From sequence record OQ791282: a stretch of 47,865 nucleotides of DNA. One strand, 5' to 3'. Made by a program: the position numbers and the translations under genes. The stretch's first letter is position 1, and every line of letters starts with the position of its first letter. This DNA is from Shigella phage Henu10. Shown here piece by piece: positions 36,685 through 41,940 of the stretch. The notes under the pieces are model-generated. The model did not search any database. It worked only from the letters and a program-made list of their open reading frames with translations, and was not told the origin of the DNA.

Positions 36685-37443
36685 ATGAAAAAGATAATAC
36701 AGAAAAGTATTAAAAATAATTTAAAGGATAGATTAAATACTGTTTATAACTATCTGAAAAAAACGACAGAATTTACAACGCAAACACTTTTAGCTGAGAA
36801 GATAGGATATACACGCTCTAATTTTTCAGCTGCATTAAATGGAGACGAGAGGTATCTAACAGAAGGTGTTGTTGATAAAATAGTGGAGGCTTTTCCGCAG
36901 TTAAATAGAGAGTGGTTCATAACGGGCAAAGGCGAAATGCTAAAGTCTTCAGAAGAAACTCCGATAAAAGGGGAGGGGGTAAAAGTAATTTTAGACGCAG
37001 AGATAAAAAGAACCCCATCGGAAGGCACACCTTATTATGATGTTGATTTTGCCGGAGGTTGGAACTCTGATGAGATTTTTTCACTTGGGAATCCATCATT
37101 TTATATCCAAAGTCCAGATTTTAGAAGGGCAGAGTTTGCTACTAATCTCGTGGGAAACTCTATATCAAAGATAATTCCCAGTGGAGCCATTGTAGGATTT
37201 AGACAAGTAGAGGATTGGAAAACTTATTTCCCAACAAATGAGCTGTATGGTATCATTACTAAAAACGAAATGAGAACCGTAAAAAGGGTAAAAAGAAAGA
37301 AAGGAGACTCAAATACACTTGTGTTGATTCCTGACCCATTAGAGGTTCATTCAGGATATGAGCCTGAGGAGTTGCCTATTGATTTTGTTTCAAAGATGTT
37401 TCAAGTGGTTGCTTGGGCAATGTTTGAGAGAGTAGCAATGTAA
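36685..37443 (+). CDS. CI-like repressor (HTH plus S24 LexA-like peptidase domain)
   Basis: N-terminal HTH (TQTLLAEKIGYTRSNFSAALNG); C-terminal GNSISKIIPSGAIVGF with downstream Lys-rich segment resembles the S24 Ser-Lys dyad region. Confidence 0.65.
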   Translation: MKKIIQKSIKNNLKDRLNTVYNYLKKTTEFTTQTLLAEKIGYTRSNFSAALNGDERYLTEGVVDKIVEAFPQLNREWFITGKGEMLKSSEETPIKGEGVKVILDAEIKRTPSEGTPYYDVDFAGGWNSDEIFSLGNPSFYIQSPDFRRAEFATNLVGNSISKIIPSGAIVGFRQVEDWKTYFPTNELYGIITKNEMRTVKRVKRKKGDSNTLVLIPDPLEVHSGYEPEELPIDFVSKMFQVVAWAMFERVAM

Positions 37444-37457
37444 TTAAAATAGAAATT

Positions 37458-37910
37458 ATGAGTCCTACTGAAAAAGGAAAGATATTTGAGGATTATGTTC
37501 AGGATATAATGTTTCCTGTTGATAGATATATAGTCGTTAGAAAGACGCCTAATTTTGAGGACGCAAGCAAACGATTGATAGAAGATTGCAATAATCCTGA
37601 TTTTACATTTAGAAGAATAAGAACAGGGAAGGAGTATAGCGTAGAGGCTAAATTCAGAATACCTAGAGGGTACAATGTTAATGTTTGTACGGAAGAACAG
37701 CTAGAGAGATATAGAAAGTATGATGAGCAAAGCCCTACTTTTATGGCTTTAGGAATAGGAGGGTGTCCGTCTAGTCCTACGATATTACTGTTTTTTCATA
37801 TAAGTAAGCTGGCGAGCACCAATATTTTCTTACCTGATTTCTTTAAGGATAATTATTTCAGATTGAACAGCCCTGTATTTTCTAAGTATATGGAAAAATT
37901 ATTAAGATGA
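37458..37910 (+). CDS. PD-(D/E)xK-like nuclease-fold protein, putative
   Basis: IFEDYV ... NNPDFTF ... SVEAKF gives an E / PD / ExK pattern with canonical spacing. Confidence 0.35.
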   Translation: MSPTEKGKIFEDYVQDIMFPVDRYIVVRKTPNFEDASKRLIEDCNNPDFTFRRIRTGKEYSVEAKFRIPRGYNVNVCTEEQLERYRKYDEQSPTFMALGIGGCPSSPTILLFFHISKLASTNIFLPDFFKDNYFRLNSPVFSKYMEKLLR

Positions 37911-38176
37911 AAACAGCGATAGACGAAAGAATATTGAGCCTGCCGAGATACCTAAAGAAGAACGGAGAAATAAAAAGGCTCCAAGAGTTCTACGATGAAA
38001 TTGGAATTTCCAAGCAACGGTTTAATAAAATTAAAAAACAAGATATAAGTGGCATTAACGCACACTTTACCGTTGAGCAGATACACAAAATAGGAATAGT
38101 TTATGGCATTGATTTTAATTGGATTTTTGGGGTAACAGATACCCCTAGACAAAACACCAAAAGTGCACAAATTTAA
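37907..38176 (+). CDS. HTH protein (excisionase/regulator candidate)
   Basis: 89 aa; YDEIGISKQRFNKIKKQ HTH-like; immediately upstream of the integrase. Confidence 0.4.
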   Translation: MKTAIDERILSLPRYLKKNGEIKRLQEFYDEIGISKQRFNKIKKQDISGINAHFTVEQIHKIGIVYGIDFNWIFGVTDTPRQNTKSAQI

Positions 38177-38228: not shown

Positions 38229-39545
38229 ATGGCAAAAAATGGTCAAAAAGTTTCCCTCTCTCTCCGCAAAAAGGAGTTAAGCCGTTGTAAATCAACGGTT
38301 TTGCTTTATAAAACAGGTCTTAAAGCACAAAAGTGCACAAATTCCATTTCCGCTACCCCTAATGTCCAACACTTTAATTTGGACGAAATGGAAAATTATT
38401 GGACTAATCCCAAAGTGAAACATTACCCCTTAGAAACAGGTAAGGATTGGTATGTTTGGTTTCGATTTAACGGAGGTAATCCCATTAGAGTAAAGCAAGG
38501 GCTTAATCAGATTCCAGAATTTGAGGAAAGGCTGCAAGAGGCTTATGCAATGGCAGATGTCATAAGAGAAAGGCTAGAGAGTGGTTGGGTTCCTCAAAGT
38601 GCTAAAGTGAGGGTAAAAAGGATAAATCTTATAGATGCCGTTATATTTGGCTTTGAGGAAAAAAAGAAAACTCTTTCAAAAAACAGCATCGATAATTTTA
38701 GAAGCTCTGTCAATTTCTTTATTGAAGCGGTCAAGGAGTTGCAATATCACAGAATGCAGGTGTCTAGTTTTGAAAGGATACAAGCTAAAGAGGTTCTGGA
38801 ACATCTAAAAAATGAGAAAGGCTGGTCTAACAAGACTTATAATAAACATCTTGGTTTTTTAAGGTCTGTTTTTCACGAAATACTTGACGCTGACTACATA
38901 AAAAGTAATCCATTTAGAGACATTAGAAATCTAAAGGTTCTAAAAAAAGAAGCAAATGTACCTCCAACAAATGAGGAGATGAAAGCTATATCTAACGCTT
39001 TGCAGGATTACTGTTTTGGGTTCTATGTCTTTTGTTCCACTATCTATTATTGCGGTATCCGTCCTGCGGAGTTGGTGCAAATGAAAGTATCAATGCTAGA
39101 TTTGGATAACGAGCTAATCAATTTACCTGCTGAAATAACAAAAACAGATGCTGATAGGGTAGTACCCATAAGCGAAAACTTGAAAAGTCTATTTTCAAAA
39201 TTTAACCTTTCTAATCCTCATAATTATTTGTTTGGTACTTGCGTGCCGAATGGAGGAAGGCACGGTATTAAAAATAGATATTTTGAGCCTAATGAGTTCA
39301 AAGTAAAGGAAGACACAGCTAATAAGCTATGGCGTAGGCTGATAAAAGACGGCTTAGGCATTGACAAAAATATGTACTCCTTGAAGCACAAAGGAGCAGA
39401 CGATAAAATATTAGCAGGAATGCCTATTGAAACCATACAGGCTATATTTGGACACTCTACTCAAAAAATGACCGAGCGATATGCTAGGATAATGAAATTG
39501 CAAAGATTTGAAGAGGCTAAAAAAATAAAGTTGCCTTCTTTTTAG
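38229..39545 (+). CDS. int: Tyrosine integrase (true start may be ATG 38388)
   Basis: C-terminal catalytic region ...GHSTQKMTERYARI (H-x-x-x-T-x-x-Y); a terminator-like hairpin and a 16-bp direct repeat lie within the first 160 nt of the track ORF. Confidence 0.8.
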   Translation: MAKNGQKVSLSLRKKELSRCKSTVLLYKTGLKAQKCTNSISATPNVQHFNLDEMENYWTNPKVKHYPLETGKDWYVWFRFNGGNPIRVKQGLNQIPEFEERLQEAYAMADVIRERLESGWVPQSAKVRVKRINLIDAVIFGFEEKKKTLSKNSIDNFRSSVNFFIEAVKELQYHRMQVSSFERIQAKEVLEHLKNEKGWSNKTYNKHLGFLRSVFHEILDADYIKSNPFRDIRNLKVLKKEANVPPTNEEMKAISNALQDYCFGFYVFCSTIYYCGIRPAELVQMKVSMLDLDNELINLPAEITKTDADRVVPISENLKSLFSKFNLSNPHNYLFGTCVPNGGRHGIKNRYFEPNEFKVKEDTANKLWRRLIKDGLGIDKNMYSLKHKGADDKILAGMPIETIQAIFGHSTQKMTERYARIMKLQRFEEAKKIKLPSF

Positions 39546-39550
39546 ATAAA

Positions 39551-39581
39551 AACCGCGAGAATTTACAAAGTTCTCGCGGTT
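39551..39581. terminator. Bidirectional terminator between convergent int and Panacea-pair operons
   Basis: Perfect 11-bp stem AACCGCGAGAA / TTCTCGCGGTT with loop TTTACAAAG. Confidence 0.6.
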
Positions 39582-39586
39582 CTAGT

Positions 39587-40189
39587 TTATAATTTTTGTG
39601 AATCTTGTTTAGAGTATAACTCTTTTATCTCTTCTGTAACGATAGGTTCATAAAATTTTATAAAATCATCTATAACACTTTCGTCACATGAATTTTTATT
39701 ATAACCTACATAAATATTGTCTCTGATATTTCCTTTTTGTTTCATATCATATTCTTTTTTTATACAATTTCTTTTCAAAAAAGTATAAAAAACGCTCATT
39801 CTTCTGTTTAAATCCTCTTTTTGAGAGTGTTTGACATAGTTGTCATCTAATGCATAAAAACAAAAAGAATAACCCTTATGTTCTTCTATGCAAAGGTTAA
39901 AACATTCTCTGAATAGTCGTAAAGTTACCATAGGATTTATACAATCCCTACCTTTATTTCTTTTAAATTTTTTTATCCCTTTAGATTTGGAAAATTTAGT
40001 AAAATAAAAAGACAAAACAATTATTTTGTATTTTTCAAAACGCTCTAAAAGAATTATCCATCTATGCTTTTTGTCTTCATCACAAATAATGAGGCTATAT
40101 TCCTCTTCAACATAAAATACTCCGTGCTTGTCTTTATTGGAACTTTTAATCCTTTTTTTAGAAACTTTAAAATAACTCTTCCCCAACAT
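39587..40189 (-). CDS. Hypothetical protein, putative toxin partner of the Panacea-domain protein
   Basis: 200 aa, Cys- and Lys-rich; overlaps the upstream gene by 23 nt; no recognisable domain. Confidence 0.35.
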   Translation of the reverse strand: MLGKSYFKVSKKRIKSSNKDKHGVFYVEEEYSLIICDEDKKHRWIILLERFEKYKIIVLSFYFTKFSKSKGIKKFKRNKGRDCINPMVTLRLFRECFNLCIEEHKGYSFCFYALDDNYVKHSQKEDLNRRMSVFYTFLKRNCIKKEYDMKQKGNIRDNIYVGYNKNSCDESVIDDFIKFYEPIVTEEIKELYSKQDSQKL

Positions 40190-40679
40190 TACTGTTAAAA
40201 GTTGCTATCCCACATACATTGTGATTGACAACAGGTATCCTTCCGTTACCGTCCAATGAAAAATCAGAAATACTTTGTCCATCTATTTTTATTGTATTGG
40301 TAGATATTTGCTCAGGAGAAATTTCTCCTCTAGCATTTCTCCAAAGAGATTCACTATGAGTCAAATCTACTAACTCTAATCCTGTATATCCTCCATAAAT
40401 CTTCCAAATTTCATTCAGATGAGAAACGATTTCTTTATCACATATATCTTTTTCAATATATCTCTCATTTATTAAATCCCCTCTTCTTATAAACCTATAT
40501 TTATCCCAAACATTGCGAACAACAGGACCTAATACCCAAGCCTGTATTTCGTCTTTAAATAGCAAATTTCTATACTTAACAAAATACCAAACTTGAGAGT
40601 AAAATAGAAGTTTCTGTAACTTCAGTGGTGTTACTCCTTTTCTAATAAAGAAAAACGATATATCTACTGCGGAATACAC
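40167..40679 (-). CDS. Panacea-domain (DUF4065 / GepA-like) protein, PanA-like antitoxin candidate
   Basis: N-terminus MYSAVDISFFFIRKGVTPLKLQKLLFYSQVWYF...AWVLGPVVRNVWDKY matches the Panacea hallmark (T.LKLQKLLYYAQ ... AW..GPV); own TATATTTG promoter at 40720..40713. Confidence 0.55.
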   Translation of the reverse strand: MYSAVDISFFFIRKGVTPLKLQKLLFYSQVWYFVKYRNLLFKDEIQAWVLGPVVRNVWDKYRFIRRGDLINERYIEKDICDKEIVSHLNEIWKIYGGYTGLELVDLTHSESLWRNARGEISPEQISTNTIKIDGQSISDFSLDGNGRIPVVNHNVCGIATFNSNVGEELF

Positions 40680-40854
40680 GATACAATATTTTATATATTA
40701 AATTTGATAGTGCAAATATAATATTTTAAAATTATTTTTATTTTTCTATTATTAAATTATGTAGTCAAATGTGCAAAAGCAGTTTAAATCTAAATGTCTA
40801 AATGATAAAAACCACCGTGAGGGTGGTTTTTGTTTTTACTTGCATTTGACGATA

Positions 40855-41349
40855 TTAGAAACTTACATATTCTGTCTTTTGCCTATTATACAACCCTTGC
40901 AAATCTGCAATAGACTTACCAAAGGTTTTTTGAAAATGTGGAGGGTCAGTAAATCTCCAATCGCCGCCCCAAGTCCAACCATAGCGTTTAAATATAGCTA
41001 CAATTTCTTGCCAATCTGCTATTTTATCATTGTCAAAATCTGCTTTTGTGTCCCACACGGCTGTTTGGTAAGTTCCGTTATTGTCTTTATCCACTAATAA
41101 GCAAATATCAATAGCCAATCCATAATTATGGTAAGACTGTCCACCTCTTGCATTAGTTACTCGTTTTCCTTTTTTTGTTCGACCTATTGCGTACAAGTCG
41201 TTTTGCTCCTTAAAAGTTCGGAGCGTATGAGTAAATCTACAAATAGCATTCCCTGTAAGAGCCTTGCAAATTTCCTTATAAATAGCTTTAGCTTCTTCCC
41301 TTAATTTCGGGTGCAAAAGTTCAATTCTTTGCAGTGTGATTTTATCCAT
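40855..41349 (-). CDS. Endolysin, peptidase M15 (L-alanyl-D-glutamate peptidase-like)
   Basis: Motifs RTFKEQNDLY, SYHNYGLAID and DWRFTDPPHF match M15/VanY zinc-ligand architecture. Confidence 0.75.
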   Translation of the reverse strand: MDKITLQRIELLHPKLREEAKAIYKEICKALTGNAICRFTHTLRTFKEQNDLYAIGRTKKGKRVTNARGGQSYHNYGLAIDICLLVDKDNNGTYQTAVWDTKADFDNDKIADWQEIVAIFKRYGWTWGGDWRFTDPPHFQKTFGKSIADLQGLYNRQKTEYVSF

Positions 41350-41361
41350 AGTCTTGTTTTA

Positions 41362-41940
41362 TTAAAATAGTTTTATTCTTTTCAGATAAAAGTAAAGTAC
41401 AGCCCCTGCGATAATTAGGATACTACCTATAATTATCCACACCCAAGTACCGAATGTAAATCCAGATGATTTCACTTCGTTAGATACCGCCCTTATTTCA
41501 TTAGCTACCTCATTTATTGTTCTTTGGGACACGGTGTTTCTTGCCAATTCCTGCACTTCATTAAGATATTCCTTTACTTCTTTTTTCTCCGTTGTATGTT
41601 GATTGCTATTCTTGAAAGATTTAACCGAGAATTGAGCATTCCCCTTTATGATGATGCTTTGTAAAGTATCCTTACCCTCTACTTCGTGAAAGACAAAGGG
41701 CTTATCGGTTTCTGTTTTTCCGAAAATTTCGATTTTCTTTTCTTGATGTTTAGAATGTTTATCAATCTGAAGTTTATCCTGTACTTTAGTCGTTTGTTCC
41801 CGCTTGATTTCTTTTGCAGAAATGCTGTCTTTTAGCTTTACTTCCACAGTTTTACTTTGGATATGAGTGTCCGTCTTCTTCCTCGTCCGACAAGAAAACA
41901 AAAGAAGTACAGCGATTATCAATAAAAATTTACTCTTCAT
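41362..41940 (-). CDS. Unimolecular spanin-like lipoprotein, putative
   Basis: N-terminal lipoprotein signal (LLLFSC) and C-terminal transmembrane helix in one 192-aa protein, between holin and endolysin. Confidence 0.4.
   Translation of the reverse strand: MKSKFLLIIAVLLLFSCRTRKKTDTHIQSKTVEVKLKDSISAKEIKREQTTKVQDKLQIDKHSKHQEKKIEIFGKTETDKPFVFHEVEGKDTLQSIIIKGNAQFSVKSFKNSNQHTTEKKEVKEYLNEVQELARNTVSQRTINEVANEIRAVSNEVKSSGFTFGTWVWIIIGSILIIAGAVLYFYLKRIKLF

Follow-up and report, generated by a model that had tools for sequence, protein, structure and literature searches.

A Panacea-containing gene pair beside the integrase of a temperate Riemerella phage, a candidate PanA/PanT-type module

In the Caulobacter socAB system the antitoxin gene stands upstream, and SocA serves as an adaptor for ClpXP. 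AtaT, TacT, ItaT and KacT are tRNA-acetylating GNAT toxins; in GNAT enzymes, the acyl-CoA/catalytic cleft is built by beta4, alpha3, the exit of beta5 and the start of alpha4. The PanA-PanT modules (Kurata et al. 2022, PMC8832971; Ernits et al. 2023, PMC10440598) are two-gene systems in which a Panacea gene lies upstream of, and overlaps, an unrelated conserved partner. Toxins of many unrelated kinds are neutralised by PanA antitoxins, which bind them directly and in some cases do so via appended domains (PMC8832971, PMC10440598); neutralisation can proceed through either the Panacea core or appended elements, namely Phd-C, PAD1 and ZBD (Ernits et al. 2023, PMC10440598). Some predicted PanTs were 'not toxic' in the assays of Kurata et al. 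(PMC8832971).

Here we describe a gene pair from the window, i.e. the whole 47,865-nt stretch of DNA that was analysed (sequence record OQ791282). By genomic criteria, the pair groups with PanA-PanT modules. It shares with them the order and overlap of the genes and the occurrence as a two-gene module both in prophages and at dispersed positions in chromosomes; also, its PanA carries an appended C-terminal segment that could neutralise in the way of Phd-C, PAD1 or ZBD. It differs in that its partner family is without annotation in Pfam, NCBIfam, PADLOC and PHROGs.

A combination of PanA with an acetyltransferase is no novelty among predicted pairs. In Dataset S1 of Kurata et al. 2022 (PMC8832971), cluster T20 is a predicted PanT, a canonical GNAT (Acetyltransf_7) associated with PanA in Actinobacteria. 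T20 resembles our pair in combining PanA with a partner of acetyltransferase fold, in its antitoxin-then-toxin order and in its small overlap. It differs in being a recognisable GNAT by sequence (CDD, Pfam) and in belonging to Actinobacteria, whereas the partner described here is not recognisable in this way and belongs to Bacteroidota. Two other clusters were rejected as the partner family: T1, which is very widespread and has no domain prediction, and T5, which is MazF-like by HHpred. Dataset S1 of Kurata et al. (PMC8832971), in its available part, does not contain the names Riemerella, Ornithobacterium, F. psychrophilum, Empedobacter or Lewinella. In the searchable literature, we found no validated Panacea-GNAT pair.

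Architecture and setting of the gene pair

Its sequence shows the window to be a temperate Riemerella anatipestifer siphophage. Over positions 39000-41400 it is 100% identical to phages vB_RanS_PT03, PT15, PT33 and CRP12. The features of the region are as follows.

38229..39545, plus strand: int, tyrosine integrase (Pfam Phage_integrase, E 4e-16)
38253-38271, inside the 5' end of int: attP, an exact match to the published 19-bp RAP44-like attP
39551..39581, both strands: bidirectional intrinsic-terminator-like hairpin at the boundary of int and the pair, 14-bp stem with 6 GC pairs
39582..40796: variable cassette (moron), delimited by homology breaks, the slot having a different gene content in related Riemerella phages
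39587..40189, minus strand: partner gene, candidate panT toxin, 200 aa, ATG start; a sequence orphan whose predicted fold is GNAT-like
40167..40189, minus strand: 23-nt overlap of the panA 3' end and the partner 5' end (sequence ...AATGTTGGGGAAGAGTTATTTTAA)
40167..40679, minus strand: panA-like gene, 170 aa, GTG start (open reading frame and Pfam PF13274)
40713..40720, minus strand: candidate Bacteroidota-type -7 promoter box TATATTTG (pattern TANNTTTG), 34 nt before the GTG
40807..40831, minus strand: terminator-like hairpin closing the lysin operon, 10-bp perfect stem, then UUUUUAUCAUUU U-run
40855-41349, in the minus-strand operon upstream of the pair: lysin gene (Pfam Peptidase_M15_4)

The initial annotation had placed the two genes on the minus strand (40679..40167 and 40189..39587) with an overlap of 23 nt, and our analysis agrees with it in all these respects. 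Both open reading frames are real genes judging from their homologues, which retain conserved length at 36-90% identity. No earlier start of the panA-like gene is possible because an in-frame TAA lies 7 codons 5' of its GTG, and the start position of homologues agrees with this GTG. The 23-nt overlap is probably a site of translational coupling.

The pair and int are convergent, and the bidirectional terminator which had been proposed between them is indeed present. The hairpin at 39551-39581 reaches a folding energy of -20.7 kcal/mol on the plus strand and -18.0 kcal/mol on the minus strand (z -6.9 and -6.3, respectively) and is followed by U-runs on both strands. On the other side of the pair, the hairpin at 40807-40831 (dG -12.4, z -3.05, minus strand) shields the pair from upstream transcription and forms the second border of the cassette. 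The pair had further been credited with a promoter of its own. A match to the -7 box does precede the GTG, but it is only a motif match to the consensus and statistically not distinctive: the pattern occurs 89 times in the window against 71 expected, with no clear enrichment. A scan for sigma-70 promoters was set aside as not meaningful for Bacteroidota. Rfam and repeat scans of the cassette detected neither an RNA antitoxin nor an operator-like repeat, the terminators being its only structured elements.

The 19-bp attP of RAP44-like phages has been published (PMC12169736). As attP is situated at the 5' end of int, the pair would in a lysogen lie about 1.3 kb from attL, inside the prophage.

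Related Riemerella phages share int and lysin and have differing genes between the two terminators. When the segment 39000-41400 was used as query, phages RAP44, CRP2/5/6/19/34, GRAP2 and PJA1/PJO17 matched only 39000-39581 or 40797-41400. Homology to the RAP44-type phages stops exactly at the hairpin edge at 39581 and restarts at 40797. In RAP44 the slot contains a 60-aa HTH_XRE protein and a 113-aa protein without known function; in PJA1 it contains six other open reading frames, two of them encoding small HTH proteins. Since sister phages carry other genes between the terminators, the pair is, by this sequence comparison, a swapped cassette, exchangeable between the lysis genes and int. As regards the proposed hotspot next to int, the gap between int and lysin is a variable slot among Riemerella phages. 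Base composition also sets the cassette apart. Its GC content is 28.5% (25.5% in the partner gene) versus 35.1% in the window, and GC3 amounts to 0.21-0.22 in the cassette genes versus 0.29-0.34 in neighbouring genes.

In a tblastn search of 50,697 phage records, the partner was found to be encoded by four identical Riemerella phages only. No relative was detected by tblastn among plasmid records, nor in IMG/VR viral contigs by two scans, one with the family profile and one with the single protein.

The Panacea protein and the partner family

The 170-aa product had been assigned to the Panacea/DUF4065 family, and the HMM search with PF13274 (SocA_Panacea) bears this out: E 3e-17 and 64 bits, the gathering cut-off being 25.7. 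The match spans residues 21-113 of the protein and positions 1-112 of the 113 in the profile. The product also matches phrog_1281, a family of unknown function (E 6e-35). There is no additional N-terminal domain. Behind the Panacea domain, the protein continues into a C-terminal extension of about 50 aa (residues 114-170), which is kept in the cognate PanAs of both branches of the family described below. Five of its residues, R117, I132, L142, I148 and P149, are invariant across both branches, and the extension has no match in Pfam. We infer that it is a candidate for a partner-specific neutralising element. The invariant tail VGEELF, on the other hand, is confined to the branch with overlapping genes. 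It may be conserved for dual coding and translational coupling rather than for function, because the same bases also encode the N-terminus of the partner, ML(G/E)K.

The partner is Cys/Lys-rich, as had been noticed from its sequence: it contains 31 Lys, 11 Arg and 7 Cys. Its pI is 9.3 versus 6.3 for PanA, and this charge contrast was counted for a toxin-antitoxin reading. Sequence and profile searches of Pfam, NCBIfam, PADLOC, PHROGs and PDB gave no match to the partner. In PADLOC-DB v2, neither of the two proteins matched a defence system at E up to 1.

Relatives of the partner are few. The close family comprises 14 clusters in a collection of 5.8 billion proteins, and only 6 were recovered when 1.84 billion representatives were searched exhaustively with a profile. 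A search with the combined profile produced 43 clusters, all of them labelled 'hypothetical' and, wherever an organism is named, all from Bacteroidota. Every close member for which upstream sequence is available is preceded by a SocA_Panacea gene, overlapping by 17-23 nt (23 nt in L001-L008 and L014, 20 nt in L009 and 17 nt in L010-13). The neighbourhoods of these loci include the following.

L001: GH108 lysin, pair, integrase
L003: Amidase_3 lysin, pair
L005/6: pair, integrase
L007: pair, pseudouridine synthase
L010-12: NrdG, pair, IleRS; purely chromosomal

Altogether, the pair is seen beside three types of lysin (M15, GH108 and Amidase_3).

The family extends further when it is approached from the side of PanA. 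Ornithobacterium, Marinilabilia and Myroides possess PanA homologues of 39-54% identity, each followed by a protein of 166-177 aa without a Pfam domain. According to hhalign, these proteins are distantly homologous to the partner (probability 97.6%, E 4.5e-12, 147 columns). They belong to a distant branch whose members, known from Ornithobacterium, Marinilabilia, Myroides, Flavobacterium psychrophilum and Lewinella, all stand behind a PanA of 39-48% identity. In Myroides the pair is again convergent with an integrase. Three other contexts, in which the Panacea gene lies upstream with a gap of 2-29 nt, are listed here.

Flavobacterium psychrophilum: pair beside a KilA-N gene
A 3.75-Mb genome: pair beside a TIR-TPR gene
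Lewinella: LGT, pair, GalK

In every context with upstream sequence, representing at least 12 distinct neighbourhoods, the Panacea gene is directly upstream of the partner gene, the two genes overlapping by 17-23 nt at some loci and standing 2-42 nt apart at others. Since the Panacea gene precedes the partner in all these contexts, PanA and the partner have co-diverged as one mobile two-gene unit.

Predicted fold and conserved residues of the partner

The initial annotation had found no recognisable fold in the partner. At the level of sequence there is indeed no match; at the level of structure, a GNAT-like fold is predicted in two independent models, one of the window protein and one of a relative with 36% identity. 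The AlphaFold2 model of the partner, built from an alignment of 15 sequences, has a pLDDT of 72 and a pTM of 0.71. Four long antiparallel strands (beta1-4) come first; then follow a loop, a helix, beta5, a second loop, two helices, beta6, beta7 and a final helix. For comparison, the GNAT fold is a mixed beta-sheet with the core order beta4-alpha3-beta5-alpha4-beta6-beta7. A Foldseek search of the PDB with this model returned no significant match; the best hit, itself not significant, is the GNAT acyltransferase domain of NcdE (E 0.19, TM 0.31). We call the predicted fold 'GNAT-like' with moderate confidence.

Conservation was counted in an alignment of 39 partner sequences. Residues F61, C96, N128, R130 and F176 are invariant, and I46, S60, F111, A113, D116, S132, F137, L138, G153 and Y163 are conserved in at least 90% of the sequences. 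According to the predicted secondary structure, the conserved residues are placed on beta4, on alpha3, on beta5 and its exit, and at the start of alpha4.

The sequence itself carries no canonical signature of an acetyltransferase. When 16 close and 3 distant members were compared with Pfam at E up to 10, no acetyltransferase family was retrieved. Motif A (Q/R-x-x-G-x-G/A), which binds the acetyl-CoA pyrophosphate at beta4/alpha3, is not conserved in the partner family. The sequence R77-N-K-G80 is present in the close branch only and continues with D/E instead of G/A; some members have an 8-residue insertion at the position of motif A, and the distant branch is variable there. The models lack the alpha1-alpha2 segment of GNATs and contain a long insertion between beta4 and alpha3.

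Two possible signatures were considered and rejected. Within the close family, N128...Y135...L138 looked attractive as GNAT motif B (compare N..A..lY..lGF), but in the wider alignment Y135 varies, and the aromatic residue that is conserved sits one place off. The residues D115/D116, reminiscent of the catalytic DD of Rtt109, likewise lack conservation as a pair, D115 being replaced by N in the distant branch.

A comparison with AtaT, TacT, ItaT and KacT brings out both likenesses and differences. Common to all are a small basic protein with a GNAT-like fold (predicted in our case), an overlapping two-gene cassette and residence on mobile elements. Unlike these toxins, however, our partner belongs to no GNAT family of Pfam, has no conserved motif A, lacks alpha1-alpha2 and bears the long beta4-alpha3 insertion; moreover, its invariant residues are Cys, Asn and Arg, in contrast to the catalytic Tyr of the GNAT toxins. 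The antitoxins differ as well, since in AtaRT, TacAT, KacAT and ItaRT they are RHH proteins (DUF1778), whereas here the antitoxin is a Panacea protein encoded upstream. Because sequence membership, motif A and antitoxin type all set it apart, the pair by these sequence traits falls outside the canonical GNAT-toxin/RHH-antitoxin families. That the partner carries out acyl-transfer chemistry is possible, although we regard it as doubtful.

Proposed function and its alternatives

In our opinion the region is best explained as a PanA/PanT-type, type II toxin-antitoxin-like two-gene module, a reading to which we assign a probability of roughly 0.6. The constant pairing of a Panacea gene with the partner is the genomic signature that has been used for predicting PanA/PanT pairs (PMC8832971). 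Two observations are worrying. At matched loci the partner is always less conserved than PanA (68 vs 81%, 56 vs 66%, 40 vs 51% and 36 vs 58% identity), and the same is true for the distant branch (20-27% vs 39-48%). Such faster divergence of the partner seems unusual for an enzyme toxin and its antitoxin and counts against the toxin-antitoxin reading. The second is the lack of toxicity of some predicted PanTs in published assays (PMC8832971). The failure of PADLOC to recognise either protein and a promoter that is just a motif match were also counted against this reading.

The pair might instead be a conserved module of another kind, in which the partner is a non-toxic modifying enzyme or binding protein useful to the phage and PanA is a regulator, chaperone or sensor. 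The partner might, for instance, counter host defence as an acetyltransferase in the manner of AcrVA5, serve in lysogenic conversion or act as an inhibitor in the way of an antizyme. We consider this explanation rather unlikely, if by no means negligible. It is at odds with the presence of isolated pairs amid housekeeping genes far from any phage (NrdG/pair/IleRS and LGT/pair/GalK), sites at which a selfish or addictive module fits better than a phage-specific accessory role. The tight overlap and the strict co-occurrence with one PanA lineage are likewise typical of toxin-antitoxin pairs. A mechanism of the SocAB kind (type VI), with PanA as a proteolytic adaptor which feeds the partner to ClpXP for constant degradation, would agree with the identity of the Panacea and SocA domains (Pfam SocA_Panacea) and with the upstream position of the antitoxin-like gene, the same order as in socAB. 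Nevertheless, it appears improbable. The 170-aa product scores only 40 bits with the SocA equivalog NCBIfam NF047745, for which the cut-off is 190; the partner is linked neither to SocB nor, by the sequence libraries Pfam and NCBIfam, to any other described family; nothing points to a ClpXP adaptor mechanism; and those PanAT pairs that have been assayed form stable complexes in the type II manner (PMC8832971).

The 200-aa reading frame has also been deposited as an M15 family metallopeptidase (UIS73940.1, GenBank MZ995504, phage PT03), which would make it a second lysin. Apart from this depositor's product name, the evidence runs in the opposite direction. No Pfam peptidase matches the protein even at E up to 10, BLASTP against the neighbouring true M15 lysin gives E 0.32, three identical records name the reading frame hypothetical, and the predicted fold is not peptidase-like. 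The label is thus refuted by both sequence and fold, and the chance that the partner is a second lysin is practically nil.

If the pair is a PanA/PanT-type module, as we favour, it could work in the following way. The genes would be transcribed from their own promoter, probably in the lysogen too, and their translation would be coupled. The mildly acidic PanA would bind the basic partner and hold it inactive, either via the Panacea core or via the C-terminal extension of about 50 aa which distinguishes the PanAs of this partner family. Loss of PanA, or its triggering, would free the partner to arrest growth; infection by a second phage and disappearance of the element are examples of events that could bring this about. 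Its putative cofactor or active site would be formed by C96, N128 and R130 together with D116 and S132, on alpha3, at the end of beta5 and at the start of alpha4. By analogy with AtaT, TacT, ItaT and KacT, the likeliest activity would be acylation of an essential target; this is the weakest step of the scheme. The pay-off would be stabilisation of the prophage or element, or else abortive infection and exclusion of rival phages.

A bolder version of the same idea is that the partner is the founder of a new class of toxins or effectors. It would possess a stripped-down GNAT-like scaffold without the CoA-binding motif and without alpha1-alpha2, a site made up of Cys96, Asn128 and Arg130 (plus Asp116 and Ser132), and a target or chemistry unlike that of the tRNA-acetylating toxins. 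The C-terminal extension of PanA would restrain it, and the whole would be an abortive-infection or superinfection-exclusion module of temperate Bacteroidota phages. We offer this version tentatively, as one that is unlikely to hold in full. The suggestion of the initial annotation that the partner may be a new toxin type stands in so far as its sequence family is unannotated, but a GNAT PanT has already been predicted in T20. A 'GNAT-like PanT' is therefore no new concept.

Nor does the pair open a new class of systems, PanAT modules with many unrelated toxins being already established. If validated, it would nevertheless add to the Panacea network a new toxin family that is un-annotated in sequence libraries, and it would provide a fresh case for the question of how PanA neutralises, i.e. 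by the Panacea core or by an appended C-terminal element. R. anatipestifer causes disease in poultry, and phage therapy against it is under exploration. A validated pair would be a candidate superinfection-exclusion or abortive-infection gene in the prophages of this bacterium. Complex patterns of cross-immunity have been reported among lysogens (PMC12169736), and because only some RAP44-like phages carry the cassette, it could contribute to these patterns.

Integration site and repressor region of the phage

The variable int-lysin interval, or slot, that holds the Panacea pair is bordered by the tyrosine integrase gene (int), with which the following features are associated.

36685-37443: 252-aa protein, repressor candidate
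37458-37910: 150-aa ORF
37907-38176: 89-aa ORF
38253-38271: 19-bp attP core, TCCCTCTCTCTCCGCAAAA, spanning codons 9-15 at the 5' end of int

The core sequence is that published for RAP44-like phages (PMC12169736). Its position in the 5'-terminal part of the coding sequence means that integration splits int, as has been described for phage PJA1 (PMC12169736). The 252-aa protein, encoded two genes upstream of int, gave weak HTH and Peptidase_S24 matches and is likely a CI/LexA-type repressor; the 150-aa and 89-aa ORFs that separate it from int had no significant hit in Pfam. Repressor and int genes arranged in this way also adjoin the pair in two compared loci, L001 and L022.

Depositor labels and an antisense ORF

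The depositors of phage PT03 (GenBank MZ995504, compared locus L017) named the 200-aa partner (L017 2088-2690, equivalent to window 39587-40189) an 'M15 family metallopeptidase'; the 150-aa ORF that precedes int (L017 1-411, window 37458-37910) carries the label 'tyrosine-type recombinase/integrase'. Neither label has Pfam support; both look wrong and were apparently displaced from adjacent genes.

One further ORF was noted at the lysin gene.

40771-41097 (+): 108-aa ORF, GTG start, antisense to the lysin gene and spanning its terminator

In this AT-rich sequence, the frame is probably open by chance.

Slot contents in sister phages and Panacea pairs at distant loci

In the sister phages RAP44 (compared locus L015, 4585-5108) and PJA1 (L016, 570-1282), the int-proximal slot holds a gene for a small HTH_XRE protein of 60-64 aa, which abuts or overlaps the gene of an upstream function-unassigned protein (113 or 177 aa). 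Both arrangements are further two-gene units of toxin-antitoxin-like type, and the int-proximal slot therefore repeatedly hosts such pairs.

Marinilabilia salmonicolor carries two Panacea gene pairs arranged tail-to-tail within 3 kb (L020/L021, 4001-5028 and 5944-6999). The partner in one belongs to the family of the 200-aa protein. In the other, PanA is 186 aa long and its partner is an unrelated protein of 163 aa, devoid of Pfam domains. The two pairs illustrate, within a single locus, the swapping of partners by Panacea genes. In a 3.75-Mb genome (L027, 4913-6145), a distant copy of the pair, its partner remotely related to the 200-aa protein, adjoins a 410-aa TIR-TPR protein, a neighbourhood that may represent a defence-island context.
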